DNA of 64,000 nucleotides from Clostridia bacterium (lineage in GTDB: Bacteria > Bacillota > Clostridia > Christensenellales > CAAEEZ01), in the NCBI GenBank assembly GCA_900755035.1, contig CAAEEZ010000017.1:260887-324886 (forward strand), written 5' to 3'. Both the position numbers and the translations under genes were made by a program. The notes beneath the pieces were generated by a model. It did no database searches and had not been told where the DNA came from. It was given only the letters and a program-made list of their open reading frames with translations. Below are positions 8,321 to 13,967 of this stretch, piece by piece; position 1 is the stretch's first letter, and every line of letters begins with the position of its first letter.

Positions 8321-9188
8321 CAATCTCTTCCTTCGACCATAACCCACTAGCGCCGGCAGGCAAAATCACGCCCTTTTCCTTAGTTGGCAAGCCTACCTCG
8401 TAGCTATAAGTATAGCCATTGTAATTTGATAATATTTTGCTTAGTATGTTTTTCATCACTTGCGGTTGCAAGCCCGTCGTATAGGAATTTATAAGGAAAA
8501 ACAACGGATTATCGGACAATACTTCTTTCGTCAATTCAACAAGCGAATATATTTCGTCTTCTATTTTCCATTTTTCACCGTTTGGACCTCTGCCGAAACT
8601 AGGTGGGTCCATAATTACGGCGTCGTATTTATTTCCCCTTCTTATTTCCTTTTGAACAAACTTTTTGCAGTCGTCTAGTATAAACCTAACTTTCGTTGTA
8701 TCAAGCCCACTAAGCGCTATATTTTCCTTTGCCCTATCTATCATTGCTTTTGCCGAGTCCACGTGCGTTACGTGTGCGCCTGCGCTCATACAAGCAACCG
8801 TTGCGCCACCGGTGTATGCAAACATATTTAATACTTTGATAGGTCTACCAGCCTTTTTAATTAGGTCTATCATAGTTGCCCAATTAACCGCTTGCTCCGG
8901 GAACAAGCCCGTATGCTTGAAACCCATTAGTTTTAGTTTGAATTTAAGATTACGCCAACCAACGGTAAACTCGCCGATTTCTTTGTTTACGTAATGCCAC
9001 GAGCCACCACCCGTATTGCTACGCATATAATAGGCGCTAAGCCCCTTATAACGCATCATATCTACGTCGGTTTTCCATATAACCTGAGGGTCTGGGCGAA
9101 GCAAAATATACTTAGCCCATCTCTCTAGTTTCATACCGTCGCCGGTAGCAATTACTTCGTAATCTTTCCACTCGTCGTTATACTTCAT
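8313..9188 (-). CDS. class I SAM-dependent (RlmI/RlmK-like) methyltransferase
   Basis: SAM motif FAYTGGATVA and DPPSFG are present. The start forms an ATGA overlap with the ileS stop. Confidence 0.75.
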   Translation of the reverse strand: MKYNDEWKDYEVIATGDGMKLERWAKYILLRPDPQVIWKTDVDMMRYKGLSAYYMRSNTGGGSWHYVNKEIGEFTVGWRNLKFKLKLMGFKHTGLFPEQAVNWATMIDLIKKAGRPIKVLNMFAYTGGATVACMSAGAHVTHVDSAKAMIDRAKENIALSGLDTTKVRFILDDCKKFVQKEIRRGNKYDAVIMDPPSFGRGPNGEKWKIEDEIYSLVELTKEVLSDNPLFFLINSYTTGLQPQVMKNILSKILSNYNGYTYSYEVGLPTKEKGVILPAGASGLWSKEEIDE

Positions 9189-12100
9189 GCCTTTTTAACG
9201 CTCAATACAACTTCGTTGTCGTTGATGTTCCACTCCTTCGTAAAGCCGTCTAGTTCGCTAACTACCTTGTCTGCTAGTACGTCTTGTCTAATACTTTCGT
9301 CGCTAGCGATAATTTCAGCAACCTTTCCACTTGCTTTATAGCCAAGAACGATATGGTCTACTACTTCAAGACCTGCATCTTTTCTCATAGTTTGAACCTT
9401 GGATACGATTTCTCTTGCAATACCTTCGTTTACAAGTTCCTCGGTTAGATTCGTATCAAGTATTACGGTAAAGTTGCCGTTTTGAGTAGCAACGAATCCT
9501 TCCTTATTCTTAACGCTAATTAGTAAGTCGTTTAGTTCTAGGTCAACTTGTTTTCCGTCGATTTCACAAGTAAAGGTTTCACCTGCTTTTACGGTATTTA
9601 CCACCTTCAAGGTGTCGCAAGTTGCAAGGTATTCTCTAATCGAATTGATTAGTTTGCCGTACTTAGGACCTAAGGTTTTTAGTTGAGGCTTCAATTCGTA
9701 GTCGATAAACATAGTATCGTCTTCTACGTTAACCACTTCTTTTACGTTGATTTCCTCGGCTATAATGCTTAGTACTTCCTTGTCGTCCTTAGCATCGTCA
9801 GTCTTTATGAACATAGTTTTAAGTGGTTGCCTATTCTTGATATTTGCGCTGTTTCTGCTTGCTCTTGCTAGGTTTACAACTTCAAGGATATATTCCATAT
9901 CCTCTTCAAGTTTCTCGTCTATCATAGATAGGTCAGCCTCTGGGTATTTGCATAGATGTACGCTCATAGGCTCGTCCTTAAAGAAGTTAGCAACTAAGTT
10001 TTGGTAGATGCTCTCAGCCATAAACGGAGTAAACGGTGCAAGTAACTTAGACAACGTAACAAGTACGGTATACAAGGTCATATAAGCGGAAATCTTGTCC
10101 TCGCTCATATCTTTGCCCCAATACCTATCTCTTGAACGACGTACGTACCAATTTGATAGTTCGTCAACGAAGTCTTGGATTTTTCTTGCGCACTCGGTAA
10201 TTTTGTAGTTTTCCAAATTCTCGTTTACGAATTTAACAAGAGAATTTAGTCCCGACAAAATCCATTTGTCCATCATACTGAATTTGCAATCTTTTAGGCT
10301 GTATTTAGATGGGTCGAACTTGTCGATTTCAGCGTACAATACGTAGAATGCGTAGGTGTTCCACAAAGTACCCATAAACTTTCTTTGGCACTCTGATACG
10401 TTTTCAGCAGAGAAACGGCTAGGTAGCCATGGCATACTTGCAGTGTAGAAATACCACCTTACAGCGTCTGCGCCTTGAACGTCTAGTACGCTCCACGGGT
10501 CTACAACGTTGCCCTTATGCTTACTCATTTTGATGCCGTCCTTGTCGTTTACGTGGCCAAGTACGATACAGTTTTCAAACGGCGATTTGTCAAATAACAA
10601 AGTTGAAACTGCAAGCAAGGTGTAGAACCAACCTCTAGTTTGGTCAACTGCCTCACTGATAAATTGAGCAGGGAATCTCTTCTCAAACTCTTCTTTGTTC
10701 TCGAACGGATAGTGGAATTGTGCAAAAGGCATAGAACCACTATCAAACCAGCAGTCTAGTACCTCAGGCGTTCTCTTCATCTCGCCACCACACTTATCGC
10801 ACTTAAAGGTTACTTGGTCAATGTACGGACGGTGAAGTTCTACGTCCCCACTTAAACCTGCAAGTTCTCTTAATTCTTTTCTAGAACCTACTACTTTTAT
10901 CTCGCCACAATCCGGACATACCCAAATAGGTAACGGAGTACCCCAATATCTTTCACGAGAGAAGCCCCAGTCGATAACGTTGTCTAGGAAGTTGCCCATA
11001 CGGCCCGTACCGATTGTAGGTGGAATCCAATTTACAGAAGAGTTATTTTTAAGTAGTTTTTCTCTTAAAGCGCTCATTTTGATAAACCACGAACTTCTTG
11101 CATAGTAAAGTAGTGGCGTATCGCATCTCCAACAATAAGGATAGCTGTGAGTAAACTCCACTTCCTTAAACATTAGTCCTTTTTCGTAAAGTTTATCTAT
11201 TACCATACGGTCGCCGTCTTTTACGAAAATACCTTTCATATCGTATACTTCGTCAGTGAAACGACCTCTTTCGTCTACGTATTGAACAAACGGTAAGTTG
11301 TATCTTCTACCTACTTGTGCGTCATCCTCACCAAATGCTGGTGCGCAGTGAACGATACCCGTACCATCGGTAAGCGTTACATAGTCGGCAACGGTTAGAT
11401 AGTAGCCGTTTGATGCAGTTTTCTCGTCGGCATAGTCAAATAATGGCTCGTACTTTCTTCTTTCAAAGTCCACGCCTTTTTTGGTGTAGATAACTTCGTA
11501 ATTTTCAAATATGGTGCTAGCAAGTGCTTCTGCAACGATATAATAGGTATCCTCTACCTTTACTTTTACGTAGTTCTCGTTAGGGTTCATAATCAAACAA
11601 ATGTTTGAAGGCAACGTCCAAGGAGTAGTCGTCCAAGCAAGATAGTAGGTATTTTCTTCGTCGGTAGCCTTAAATTTAACTATAACGGAAGTTTCTTTTA
11701 CGTCTTTGTAGCCTTGTGCAACTTCGTGAGAAGACAATGCAGTACCACAACGAGGGCAATAAGGCACGATTTTGTATCCTTTATAGATTAGTCCCTTGTC
11801 GTAAATAGTTTTTAGCGCCCACCATACCGATTCGATATAGTTGTTGTCGTAGGTAATATAAGGGTTTTCCATATCAGCCCAAAAGCCTACTCTGTCGCTC
11901 ATTTGCTCCCACTCGCCTTTATATTTCCAAACGCTCTCTTTACACTTTTGTATGAAAGGCTCTATTCCGTATTTTTCTATCTCTTGCTTTCCGTCTATGC
12001 CAAGAAGTTTTTCTACTTCTAATTCAACGGGCAAACCGTGAGTATCCCAACCTGCTTTACGTAGCACGTTGTATCCTTTCATCGTTTTATAACGAGGTAT

Positions 12101-12304
12101 TATATCCTTTATTACACGGGTTAATATATGACCAATATGTGGCTTACCGTTAGCCGTAGGTGGTCCGTCGTAAAACGTGAAGTAATCTTTGCTGTTCTCG
12201 TTTTCTTTTAGGCTTTTCTTAAAAACCTCGTTTTGCTTCCAAAAATCAAGAACCTCTTTTTCTCTGGAACAGAAATTCATATCTGTCGTAACTTTGTTGT
12301 ACAT
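9185..12304 (-). CDS. ileS: isoleucine--tRNA ligase (long, type-2-like, 1039 aa)
   Basis: HIGH motif (PHIGH), KMSKHKGN (KMSKS) and a CP1 editing region are present. Confidence 0.97.
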   Translation of the reverse strand: MYNKVTTDMNFCSREKEVLDFWKQNEVFKKSLKENENSKDYFTFYDGPPTANGKPHIGHILTRVIKDIIPRYKTMKGYNVLRKAGWDTHGLPVELEVEKLLGIDGKQEIEKYGIEPFIQKCKESVWKYKGEWEQMSDRVGFWADMENPYITYDNNYIESVWWALKTIYDKGLIYKGYKIVPYCPRCGTALSSHEVAQGYKDVKETSVIVKFKATDEENTYYLAWTTTPWTLPSNICLIMNPNENYVKVKVEDTYYIVAEALASTIFENYEVIYTKKGVDFERRKYEPLFDYADEKTASNGYYLTVADYVTLTDGTGIVHCAPAFGEDDAQVGRRYNLPFVQYVDERGRFTDEVYDMKGIFVKDGDRMVIDKLYEKGLMFKEVEFTHSYPYCWRCDTPLLYYARSSWFIKMSALREKLLKNNSSVNWIPPTIGTGRMGNFLDNVIDWGFSRERYWGTPLPIWVCPDCGEIKVVGSRKELRELAGLSGDVELHRPYIDQVTFKCDKCGGEMKRTPEVLDCWFDSGSMPFAQFHYPFENKEEFEKRFPAQFISEAVDQTRGWFYTLLAVSTLLFDKSPFENCIVLGHVNDKDGIKMSKHKGNVVDPWSVLDVQGADAVRWYFYTASMPWLPSRFSAENVSECQRKFMGTLWNTYAFYVLYAEIDKFDPSKYSLKDCKFSMMDKWILSGLNSLVKFVNENLENYKITECARKIQDFVDELSNWYVRRSRDRYWGKDMSEDKISAYMTLYTVLVTLSKLLAPFTPFMAESIYQNLVANFFKDEPMSVHLCKYPEADLSMIDEKLEEDMEYILEVVNLARASRNSANIKNRQPLKTMFIKTDDAKDDKEVLSIIAEEINVKEVVNVEDDTMFIDYELKPQLKTLGPKYGKLINSIREYLATCDTLKVVNTVKAGETFTCEIDGKQVDLELNDLLISVKNKEGFVATQNGNFTVILDTNLTEELVNEGIAREIVSKVQTMRKDAGLEVVDHIVLGYKASGKVAEIIASDESIRQDVLADKVVSELDGFTKEWNINDNEVVLSVKKA

Positions 12305-12340
12305 TTTTACCTCTCATAATAATATTATATATACTATTCT

Positions 12341-12369
12341 ATTATAAATTTAGCGGGCGTTTTTGTCAA
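12341..12369 (-). promoter_or_regulatory. ileS promoter: TTGACA-17 nt-TATAAT
   Basis: The -35 is the reverse complement of 12364-12369 and the -10 of 12341-12346, with an exact 17-nt spacer. That leaves about 30 nt of 5' UTR before GAGAGG-ATG. Confidence 0.65.
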
Positions 12370-12400
12370 ACAGTATAGTACAATAAACATACTAATAAAT

Positions 12401-12427
12401 AAAAAAACTAGCCGACAAATCGGCTAG
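12401..12427 (-). terminator. rho-independent terminator
   Basis: The stem is ctagccg / cggctag with loop atttgt, followed by T7 on the minus strand. Confidence 0.8.
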
Positions 12428-12433
12428 AAACTA

Positions 12434-12541
12434 TTATTTTTTCTTTACTACCACCTTGATAGGCTCTTCATCTTTAAGCGACATTATCATACGGCTTTTC
12501 GGCGTACCCTTCATACCCTCTTTTTTATTTTTCTTTTTCAT
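12434..12541 (-). CDS. 35-aa Lys-rich micro-ORF (MKKKNKKEGMKGTPKSRMIMSLKDEEPIKVVVKKK)
   Basis: It is not in the ORF track because it is too short. GGAGGA lies 4 nt before the ATG, the stop is TAA, and a strong terminator follows 7 nt later. No family recognised. Confidence 0.35.
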   Translation of the reverse strand: MKKKNKKEGMKGTPKSRMIMSLKDEEPIKVVVKKK

Positions 12542-12585
12542 AATTTCCTCCTATATTAAGATAGGCAAAAAATTAAATTTTATTC

Positions 12586-12772
12586 AAAAAAAGAAAACTC
12601 CACGAGTACCGTTGGTACTAGTTATTAACCTGCAAATAGCAGGTGGGCAAGCTATCGTAACCGCTATCTTCCACCGATAAAAGCGTGGCCTGATATATGG
12701 CTAGGAAAATCGCAATCCCTTATAAAAACTGTGGTTATATAAATAGTACCTCTCGTATACCGTCGAGCCTAT
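12586..12772 (-). ncRNA. candidate structured RNA, unclassified (rod-like, about 185 nt)
   Basis: Nested complementary segments: 12733-12750 with 12614-12630 (16 bp), 12717-12719 with 12645-12647, 12699-12703 with 12658-12662 (contains a G-U valid only on the minus strand), and 12685-12688 with 12671-12674. The region ends in UUUUCUUUUUUU and has a promoter-like element upstream. Confidence 0.4.
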
Positions 12773-12778
12773 ACTTTA

Positions 12779-12807
12779 TTTTTAGCACTATTTTAACGAT
12801 TATGCAA
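12779..12807 (-). promoter_or_regulatory. putative promoter of the RNA candidate
   Basis: On the minus strand it reads TTGCAT, a 17-nt spacer, then TGcTAAAAA (extended -10). Confidence 0.4.
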
Positions 12808-12867
12808 TATATTTACCTAAAAAAATTGCTAAATTACAAAAATTTATAAAATTTATCATATATTCGT

Positions 12868-12895
12868 TTGTAATTTATTTATTTTATGTTATAAT
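12868..12895 (+). promoter_or_regulatory. tRNA-Thr promoter
   Basis: It reads TTGTAA, a 16-nt spacer, then TGtTATAAT (extended -10). The predicted start is about 3 nt before the mature tRNA 5' end. Confidence 0.55.
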
Positions 12896-12904
12896 CATAT
12901 CGTT

Positions 12905-12980
12905 GCTGATATGGCTCAGTCGGTAGAGCGGTTCACTCGTAATGAACAGGTCGCCAGTTCGAATCTGGCTATCAGCTCCA
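12905..12980 (+). tRNA. tRNA-Thr (anticodon CGT)
   Basis: A 76-nt cloverleaf can be drawn by hand: acceptor GCTGATA/TATCAGC, D stem GCTC/GAGC, anticodon stem GTTCA/TGAAC with loop CTCGTAA, T stem GCCAG/CTGGC with TTCGAAT, and encoded CCA. Confidence 0.92.
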
Positions 12981-12981
12981 C

Positions 12982-13009
12982 AACCGCTACGTATTGTAGC
13001 GGTTTTTTT
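12982..13009 (+). terminator. rho-independent terminator after the tRNA
   Basis: The stem is aaccgctac / gtagcggtt with loop gtatt, followed by a T7 run. Confidence 0.8.
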
Positions 13010-13044
13010 ATTGCATATTATTCCATTTTTTAGAATAATTCATT

Positions 13045-13066
13045 AAAAAAAAAGCGTAATATACGC
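13045..13066 (-). terminator. terminator of the amino-acid ABC operon
   Basis: The stem is gcgta / tacgc, followed by T9 on the minus strand. Confidence 0.5.
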
Positions 13067-13094: not shown

Positions 13095-13967
13095 TTATAT
13101 TTCTTCAAAAGATTTTTTCAAGAAGTTTTGTAGTTTTTCGCTCTTTGGATTGTTAAATATCTCATCAGGCGAATCCATCTCCTCTATTACTCCGTCCGCC
13201 ATAAACATTACCTTGTCCGAAACGTTTTTAGCAAATTCCATTTCGTGCGTAACTACAATCATAGTTCTACCGCTTGTTTTTAGCCCTTTTATTACTTTTA
13301 GTACTTCACCCGTAAGTTCAGGGTCTAATGCAGACGTCGGCTCGTCAAAACAAAGTATTTTTGGGTTTAGCGCAAGTGCCCTTGCTATTGCCACCCTTTG
13401 TTGCTGTCCACCAGAAAGTTGGTGCGGGTAGAACCCTTTTCTTTCGCTTAGTCCAACCTGCTCTAACAGATTATTTACAACTTCGTCAACGCTTTTATCA
13501 AGGTCGTCCTTATAAGCTTTCACTTTCTCGGCGTTTGCCTTTTTAGTGTCTTTTTTGTTTTCATTACTTGCGCCCTTTAACTCTTCTTTTAACTTCGCCT
13601 TGTATTTTTTTACGTTTTCCTTGTTTTGAAATTTTAAGGCAAGCGCAACGTTTTGGCTAGCCGTATACTGTGGGAACAAATTAAACGACTGAAAAACTAG
13701 CCCGAAGTTTAGCCTTTTTTTGCGTAGTTCGTCGTCCTTGTATTTCTTTTCGTTTTTACCCTCGAATATTAGTTCGTCAGCAACTTTTATAGTGCCTTCG
13801 TCGGCAATTTCCAAAAAGTTCAAACAACGTAGCAAAGTGGTTTTACCACTACCCGAAGAGCCGATAATAGACAAAACTTCACCTTTTTCAAGGTCGAAAG
13901 ATATGCCCTTTAATATCTCGTTTTCACCAAATTTTTTCTTTATATTTCTTACTTCTAATAACGCCAT
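13095..13967 (-). CDS. polar amino-acid ABC ATP-binding protein with a Lys-rich insertion
   Basis: Walker A is GSSGSGKTT, the signature is LSGGQQQRVAIARAL and Walker B is ILCFDEPTSALD. It is 290 aa against about 240-250 for typical GlnQ-type proteins. Confidence 0.9.
   Translation of the reverse strand: MALLEVRNIKKKFGENEILKGISFDLEKGEVLSIIGSSGSGKTTLLRCLNFLEIADEGTIKVADELIFEGKNEKKYKDDELRKKRLNFGLVFQSFNLFPQYTASQNVALALKFQNKENVKKYKAKLKEELKGASNENKKDTKKANAEKVKAYKDDLDKSVDEVVNNLLEQVGLSERKGFYPHQLSGGQQQRVAIARALALNPKILCFDEPTSALDPELTGEVLKVIKGLKTSGRTMIVVTHEMEFAKNVSDKVMFMADGVIEEMDSPDEIFNNPKSEKLQNFLKKSFEEI

Follow-up and report, generated by a model that had tools for sequence, protein, structure and literature searches.

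A very likely 6S RNA gene between tRNA-Thr and ileS in a human-gut Clostridia bacterium

With a probability of about 95%, the minus strand at positions 12593-12771 of the window (the whole 64,000-nucleotide stretch of DNA analyzed here) encodes a 6S RNA of the SsrS type in a low-GC (37.5%) human-gut Clostridia bacterium. 6S RNA is a well-known bacterial regulator. Three lines of evidence led us to this identification: a full-length match to the covariance model of the family, the 6S architecture of the predicted fold and compensatory changes that keep the stems paired in related species.

The whole window was compared with all 4227 Rfam families using cmscan at the gathering thresholds. Two matches were obtained: tRNA-Thr(CGU) at 12905-12977 (12905-12980 according to ARAGORN) and 6S RNA (RF00013, 6S/SsrS) at 12771..12593 on the minus strand. 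The RF00013 match had a score of 60.3 bits (gathering score 46.4, E 1.8e-9), was found on the minus strand only and spanned model positions 1-187 of 187. The bacterial SRP models RF00169 and RF01854 matched nowhere in the window, and the search revealed no second 6S gene within its 64 kb. A permissive local rescan of 12250-13050 (E <= 1) left the RF00013 score unchanged and yielded no other significant family over the 6S locus. When the consensus pairs of RF00013 were mapped onto the window RNA, 41 of the 51 were canonical. The score is nevertheless near the bottom of the range for the 6S RNAs examined (53.6 to 108.2 bits for the full set). The ends of the gene (ssrS-type, 12593..12771, minus strand, 179 nt) are the boundaries of the Rfam model, not mapped ends; nt 1 of the RNA corresponds to window position 12771, and the window coordinate equals 12772 minus the nucleotide number.

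An earlier reading of this region, made by eye and without database searches (the sequence-only reading), had described an unclassified structured RNA, listed a 6S-like RNA among its options and proposed running cmscan against all of Rfam. That search returned 6S RNA, above the gathering score and over the full model. The 6S-like option was therefore right and the label "unclassified" wrong; as the same reading had allowed for a confident hit to a known family, the RNA is real but not novel. Its minus-strand orientation, approximate size (about 185 nt, compared with 179 nt), promoter position and U-rich end all hold.

Folding of the minus strand (12771-12593) gave one long irregular hairpin with a minimum free energy (MFE) of -53.6 kcal/mol (z -3.04), and only 1 of 200 dinucleotide-preserving shuffles folded as well. 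For the plus strand, the MFE was -44.3 kcal/mol (z -1.80), with 10 of 200 shuffles as good. The two strands differ in folding because the G.U pairs of the minus strand become C.A mismatches on the other strand. These pairs are G3.U176, G4.U175 and U15.G163 in the outer stem and G71.U112 in the UAGCC/GGUUA helix, the last being the G-U pair that had been predicted to exist in the minus-strand transcript only.

Both the MFE fold and the fold mapped from Rfam have the architecture of a 6S RNA, with a closing stem, a large central bubble and an apical stem-loop. The closing stem, formed by a 5' arm at 12754..12770 (nt 2-18) and a 3' arm at 12595..12611 (nt 161-177), is present in the MFE fold and in the Rfam consensus; its 15 bp, which include the three outer G.U pairs, complete the rod and had not been described as such in the sequence-only reading. 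The four helices picked out in the sequence-only reading were all found, at the following minus-strand positions, in the MFE fold as well as in the mapped Rfam consensus. Helix 1, a P2-like helix below the central bubble, pairs 12750-12733 with 12630-12614 (nt 22-39 with nt 142-158). It has 7 + 4 bp in the MFE fold, to which the Rfam model adds U35:A146 and the pairing of A37-C38-C39 with G142, G143 and U145, with U144 bulged. The remaining three helices and the terminal loop are contained in the apical domain (12645..12719), a single rod that extends from GGG (nt 53-55) to CCC (nt 125-127). Helix 2 joins GGG 12719-12717 to CCC 12647-12645, helix 3 joins UAGCC 12703-12699 to GGUUA 12662-12658 and includes the wobble G71.U112 (12701/12660), and helix 4 joins 12688-12685 to 12674-12671.

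Conservation was examined at three levels. Within the species, many human-gut metagenome assemblies contain the exact product of the micro-ORF that lies downstream of the RNA, in an unchanged gene order, and ten same-species loci (L081-L090) share at least 98.8% identity across the 506 nt compared. The sole SNP inside the RNA among these ten loci, at window position 12660 in L084, changes U112 to C and turns G71.U112 into a G-C pair, which may be taken as a small within-species confirmation of this helix.

Further relatives were reached via IleS homologs at 83-95% identity. Orthologs of the RNA adjoin tRNA-Thr in L091 and L092 (67.0 and 66.6 bits, respectively; IleS 95% identical) and in L094 (56.7 bits; IleS 84% identical). 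Across the species of the clade, the bubble consists of long invariant blocks, and the substitutions are clustered in the stems. For the five distinct genus-level sequences, 98.1% of the cells pair, compared with 34-51% in controls whose partners were slid by 1-3 columns. Both bases changed, with pairing retained, in four pairs (0-2 in these controls), namely 11:168 (GC to UA), 24:156 (UA to CG), 71:112 and 72:111. In L094, G11:C168 of the closing stem is replaced by U:A and U24:A156 of the P2-like helix by C:G; two one-sided changes in the latter helix also keep the pairing at the genus level. This covariation appears real but thin, as the five sequences come from three species. Among the GTDB representative genomes, which we anchored on IleS, the best relatives were about 75% identical (loci about 70-75%), and the RNA upstream of ileS was not 6S but a large SRP RNA or a T-box, so that these loci were of no use for the covariation analysis.

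To cover the wider family, metagenome contigs were searched with the pattern ATAAGGGA N{42,67} CCCACCTGC N{3,7} GCAGGTT, in which the first gap was set below 68 nt, leaving out the abundant window species (its own gap is 68 nt). The search returned 103 stretches with 50 unique sequences, and all of the sampled loci (20/20) were 6S RNAs according to Rfam (53.6-108.2 bits). Those from low-GC anaerobes of gut, rumen and fermentation communities (e.g. L118, L120, L152, L160, L175, L104 and L133) share with the window RNA the elements AUAAGGGA and CCCACCUGC...GCAGGUU, the closing stem and often a U-rich tail; the identity of such RNAs (e.g. L118 and L104) to the window RNA is 50-69%.

The window RNA was aligned by sequence only (MAFFT) with 34 non-redundant representatives, 50-89% identical to it. 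RNAalifold applied to these 35 sequences recovered the closing stem, the GGG:CCC pairs with the neighboring helix and the 3'-bubble hairpin. Compensatory changes were present in 12 of the 23 pairs overall and in 9 of the 11 pairs of the closing stem; the GGG:CCC pairs were invariant and the next helix covaried. Across distant 6S RNAs, MAFFT misaligned the apical domain; the family-level covariation covers the closing stem and the bubble-closing helices, and for this reason we folded the domains separately. In 34 of the 35 sequences, the apical domain formed a single rod. The arm-arm duplex of the window RNA had a z-score of -3.6, compared with -4.3 +/- 1.3 in the 34 other representatives. The window RNA has one of the weaker apical rods (z -0.4 versus -2.0 +/- 1.1; 53% versus 65% +/- 7% paired), in agreement with the modest Rfam score; the stability of this rod does not exceed that of its own mononucleotide shuffles. 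Folded domain by domain, the window RNA is within the range of the other 34 6S RNAs.

The strands of the central bubble carry the 6S motifs AUAAGGGA and CCCACCUGC...GCAGGUU, both of which are intact in the window RNA. The 5' strand (ACAGUUUUUAUAA, 12720..12732, nt 40-52) is unpaired in the MFE and Rfam structures; the AUAA in its 3' part (nt 49-52), together with GGGA of the adjoining apical domain, makes up AUAAGGGA. This motif is invariant or nearly so in the alignment of 35 sequences, which had been fetched with a pattern that fixes it. In the MFE fold, the 3' strand contains a hairpin at 12628..12644 (nt 128-144), composed of ACCUGC, the loop UAUUU and GCAGGU. Its arms fall within CCCACCUGC...GCAGGUU, and their invariance in the 35 sequences is at least partly imposed by the search pattern. 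G142 and G143 belong to both this hairpin and the bubble-closing helix. In the Rfam consensus, these residues pair with C39-C38 (with U144 bulged and U145 paired with A37), whereas in the MFE fold the partners of G142-G143-U144 are in ACCUGC, on the 3' bubble strand itself. When the bubble-closing CC:GG pairs were imposed in RNAfold, the energy was -52.7 kcal/mol, compared with -53.6 kcal/mol, but the apical fold was implausible; the only use we made of this constrained fold was to conclude that the two pairing states are close in energy.

A different pair of mutually exclusive folds had been suggested in the sequence-only reading, based on an alternative 3' hairpin (nt 153-158 with nt 162-167, i.e. 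12619-12614 with 12610-12605). We rejected this hairpin as a functional switch because it is not conserved in the relatives: its energy is -4.3 kcal/mol in the window, -1.7 kcal/mol in the 95% relative (L091, L092) and 0 in L094, the 84% relative. The hairpin probably arises from the palindromic GGUACC as a side effect. The exclusive pairings that do exist, according to the predicted folds, are those of the 3'-bubble hairpin and the bubble-closing helix, and such a competition is a known property of 6S RNA, with B. subtilis 6S-1 as an example.

A promoter-like element is located on the minus strand at 12779..12807 (TTGCAT at 12807-12802, a 17-nt spacer and (TGc)TAAAAA at 12787-12779), 7 nt before the start of the RNA. 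It is weak by consensus (3/6 and 4/6) and stays below the threshold of a simple consensus scan. Its position is conserved in three species, where it reads TTGCAT...TGTTAAAAA in L091 and TTGTAT, 16 nt, TATAAA in L094. At the other end, the U-rich tail UUUUCUUUUUUU (12586..12597, minus strand) directly follows the closing stem and is the probable termination site; a scan for compact-hairpin terminators made no call at this tail. U-rich tails also follow the 6S RNA in L091 and L094, and many metagenomic 6S RNAs have one. Two promoter-like elements, back to back and divergent, lie in the 133 bp that separate 6S from tRNA-Thr (12772-12904). The one of tRNA-Thr (TTGTAA-16-TATAAT with a TG extension, 12868-12895, plus strand), divergent from that of the 6S RNA, was called by the consensus scan.

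6S RNA acts as an open-promoter mimic that binds the housekeeping holoenzyme and is freed when a product RNA, copied from the 5' bubble strand, unwinds the adjacent helix (PMC8414754, PMC8876501). Synthesis of the product RNA on B. subtilis 6S-1 starts at C40, at the edge of the bubble, and a short 3'-bubble hairpin is present in the free RNA (PMC8876501). The B. subtilis polymerase requires initiation with GTP for efficient product-RNA synthesis (PMC3753640). In free E. coli 6S RNA, the 3' bubble has no structure; its 9-bp hairpin appears only once the downstream helix has been unwound (PMC8876501).

By analogy with E. coli 6S and B. subtilis 6S-1, the window 6S RNA would be made from its own sigma-A promoter, divergent from the tRNA-Thr promoter, and would end at the U tract. 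Its open bubble would mimic an open promoter and bind the housekeeping holoenzyme, so that sigma-A transcription would be damped when nutrients are scarce. During outgrowth, the polymerase would copy the 5' bubble strand, with the 5' strand of the P2-like helix (nt 22-39) as the template region, as in 6S-1 (PMC8876501). Initiation would most likely take place opposite a C at the bubble edge (C41, C39 or C38), hence with GTP, and the predicted product RNA would begin, for example, with 5'-GUGGUUAUAUAA or 5'-GGUUAUAUAAAU. C38, C39 and C41 sit by position where the start C40 of 6S-1 lies; the start was placed in this way, and not from a match, because the 5' bubble edge reads AACCACAG in the window clade and GAGCCAACAC in most relatives (GAGCCAACAC or AACCCGCUAA in most of the metagenomic ones). 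As copying proceeds into the AU-rich helix under the bubble, G142 and G143 would be freed and would then lock into the ACCUGC/GCAGGU hairpin on the 3' bubble strand, upon which the polymerase would be released.

Comparison with B. subtilis 6S-1 (BsrA) showed a common Bacillota-type rod with a closing stem, a central bubble and an apical stem. A 3'-bubble hairpin is predicted in the free RNA (6 bp in the window RNA and 5-7 bp in 6S-1; PMC8876501), bubble-edge C residues for a GTP-initiated product RNA are present, in the window RNA by position, as in 6S-1 (PMC8876501, PMC3753640), and the helix below the bubble would unwind during product-RNA synthesis in both. The lengths are 179 nt and about 190 nt, respectively. 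The window RNA differs from 6S-1 in its 5' bubble sequence (AACCACAGUUUUUAUAA) and in the nearly pure A-U composition of the helix below the bubble. The central-bubble-collapse helix of 6S-1 has only a marginal counterpart in the window RNA (-1.0 kcal/mol), and we do not claim it for this reason. The genomic context is also different, as the window 6S lies between tRNA-Thr and the micro-ORF with ileS.

E. coli 6S RNA (SsrS), the founding member of RF00013, belongs to the same family by the covariance model and has the same overall architecture. The mechanism (open-promoter mimicry and release by product-RNA synthesis) would be the same by analogy. The 6-bp 3'-bubble hairpin of the window RNA is, however, predicted in the free RNA, whereas that of E. 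coli forms after unwinding (PMC8876501). Like ssrS with ygfA in E. coli, the window 6S has a protein-coding gene downstream on the same strand, but this gene is an unrelated 35-aa ORF and its linkage to the RNA is not conserved.

The RNA of the window clade could also be a mechanistic variant of 6S, possibly co-transcribed with the 35-aa ORF in the window and in the 95% relative, as ssrS is with ygfA. This reading, which we consider unlikely, stems from the presence of AACCACAG in place of the widespread GAGCCAACAC, from the almost pure A-U composition of the helix to be unwound and from the marginal collapse helix. If it were true, the product RNA might start at a different site, or shorter products might release the polymerase.

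Much less probable is a 6S-derived copy that is non-functional or diverged, e.g. a 6S-2-like paralog that binds the polymerase but is a poor template for product RNA. The modest Rfam score, the weak apical rod and the atypical 5' bubble sequence would fit such a copy, and two 6S paralogs with different behaviour occur in some Bacillota (PMC3753640). However, three species have kept the RNA, with compensatory changes, and the sole SNP within the species makes one pair stronger. Both bubble motifs are preserved, initiation with GTP would be possible at the C residues of the bubble edge, as in 6S-1, and no second 6S gene is present within the 64 kb.

The riboswitch-like leader proposed as another option in the sequence-only reading requires a closer look at the micro-ORF. 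This ORF (12434-12541, minus strand) encodes a lysine-rich product of 35 aa (MKKKNKKEGMKGTPKSRMIMSLKDEEPIKVVVKKK) and has a GGAGGA ribosome-binding site as well as an intrinsic terminator of its own (12427-12408). Its homologs (34-36 aa) are found at 2763-2870 in L091, 1880-1990 in L094 and about 80-184 in L095; in L093, the homolog is a called gene at 123-287, with a tblastn match at 183-281. The motif KGTPxSR...SLKDExPxKV is kept upstream of ileS in all related loci (L091-L095). The product matched no Pfam or NCBIfam family, had only 2 matches among 1.84 billion representative proteins and appears to be a genuine small protein restricted to the clade.

According to the leader reading, the structure would be a cis-acting riboswitch or attenuator of the ORF at 12541-12434. 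The two are on the same strand, only about 50 nt separate the 3' end of the RNA from the start of the ORF, the U tract could serve as an attenuator, and the 6S RNA and the micro-ORF are adjacent in the window, L091 and L092. Against this, the RNA is a full-length 6S by Rfam, with no riboswitch family at the locus even at E <= 1, and a fixed position upstream of the ORF is not kept across the relatives. The micro-ORF homolog lies about 640 nt downstream of the 6S RNA in L094; in L093 and L095, it lies upstream of ileS, with no 6S RNA in the available upstream DNA (174 and 78 nt, respectively). The 6S RNAs of other lineages are found on many unrelated contigs. Since the micro-ORF goes with ileS rather than with the RNA, the leader reading fails; we regard it as slightly less probable still than a diverged copy. 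The additional stretch of about 640 nt between 6S and the micro-ORF in L094 (1242-1879), absent from the window, contains only short ORFs and has no Rfam match at the gathering threshold; it may have arisen by insertion or from a decayed gene.

A chance fold in an AT-rich spacer between divergent genes, with no RNA product, has a negligible probability in our view: the promoter match is weak and hairpins arise easily in such a region, but the E value of 1.8e-9 against a curated model, the z-score of -3.04, the long invariant blocks of the bubble and the concentration of variation in stems, where it is compensated, all contradict it.

Two observations concern the neighboring genes. The ileS gene (9185-12304, minus strand) is preceded, within the stretch 12305-12433, by a perfect promoter, TTGACA-17-TATAAT, at 12369..12341 (consensus scan), and the Rfam scan of the window detected no T-box in its leader of about 36 nt. 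The more distant relatives L017, L021 and L029 have a T-box leader upstream of ileS, and T-box control of this gene appears to have been lost in the window clade. In many distant relatives, a large SRP RNA is located upstream of ileS, usually on the opposite strand. The gene at 13095-13967 (minus strand) encodes an ABC-transporter ATPase of 290 aa, whose ABC_tran match covers residues 19-212 for a 137-position profile. This span indicates a lysine- and glutamate-rich insertion of about 40-50 aa in the nucleotide-binding domain, at about residues 105-160 (...KYKAKLKEELKGASNENKKDTKKANAEKVKAYKDDLDKS...).

The 6S RNA beside tRNA-Thr is an ordinary gene of an already known kind, which a standard Rfam-based pipeline would call. 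Beyond a correct annotation, the finding matters little: in this lineage of uncultured gut Clostridia, a 6S gene lies between tRNA-Thr and ileS, and its structure, strand, promoter and end had been detected accurately by eye. The set of orthologs from three species of the clade, together with about 50 distinct metagenomic 6S RNAs, could modestly aid the comparison of 6S bubbles across anaerobes.
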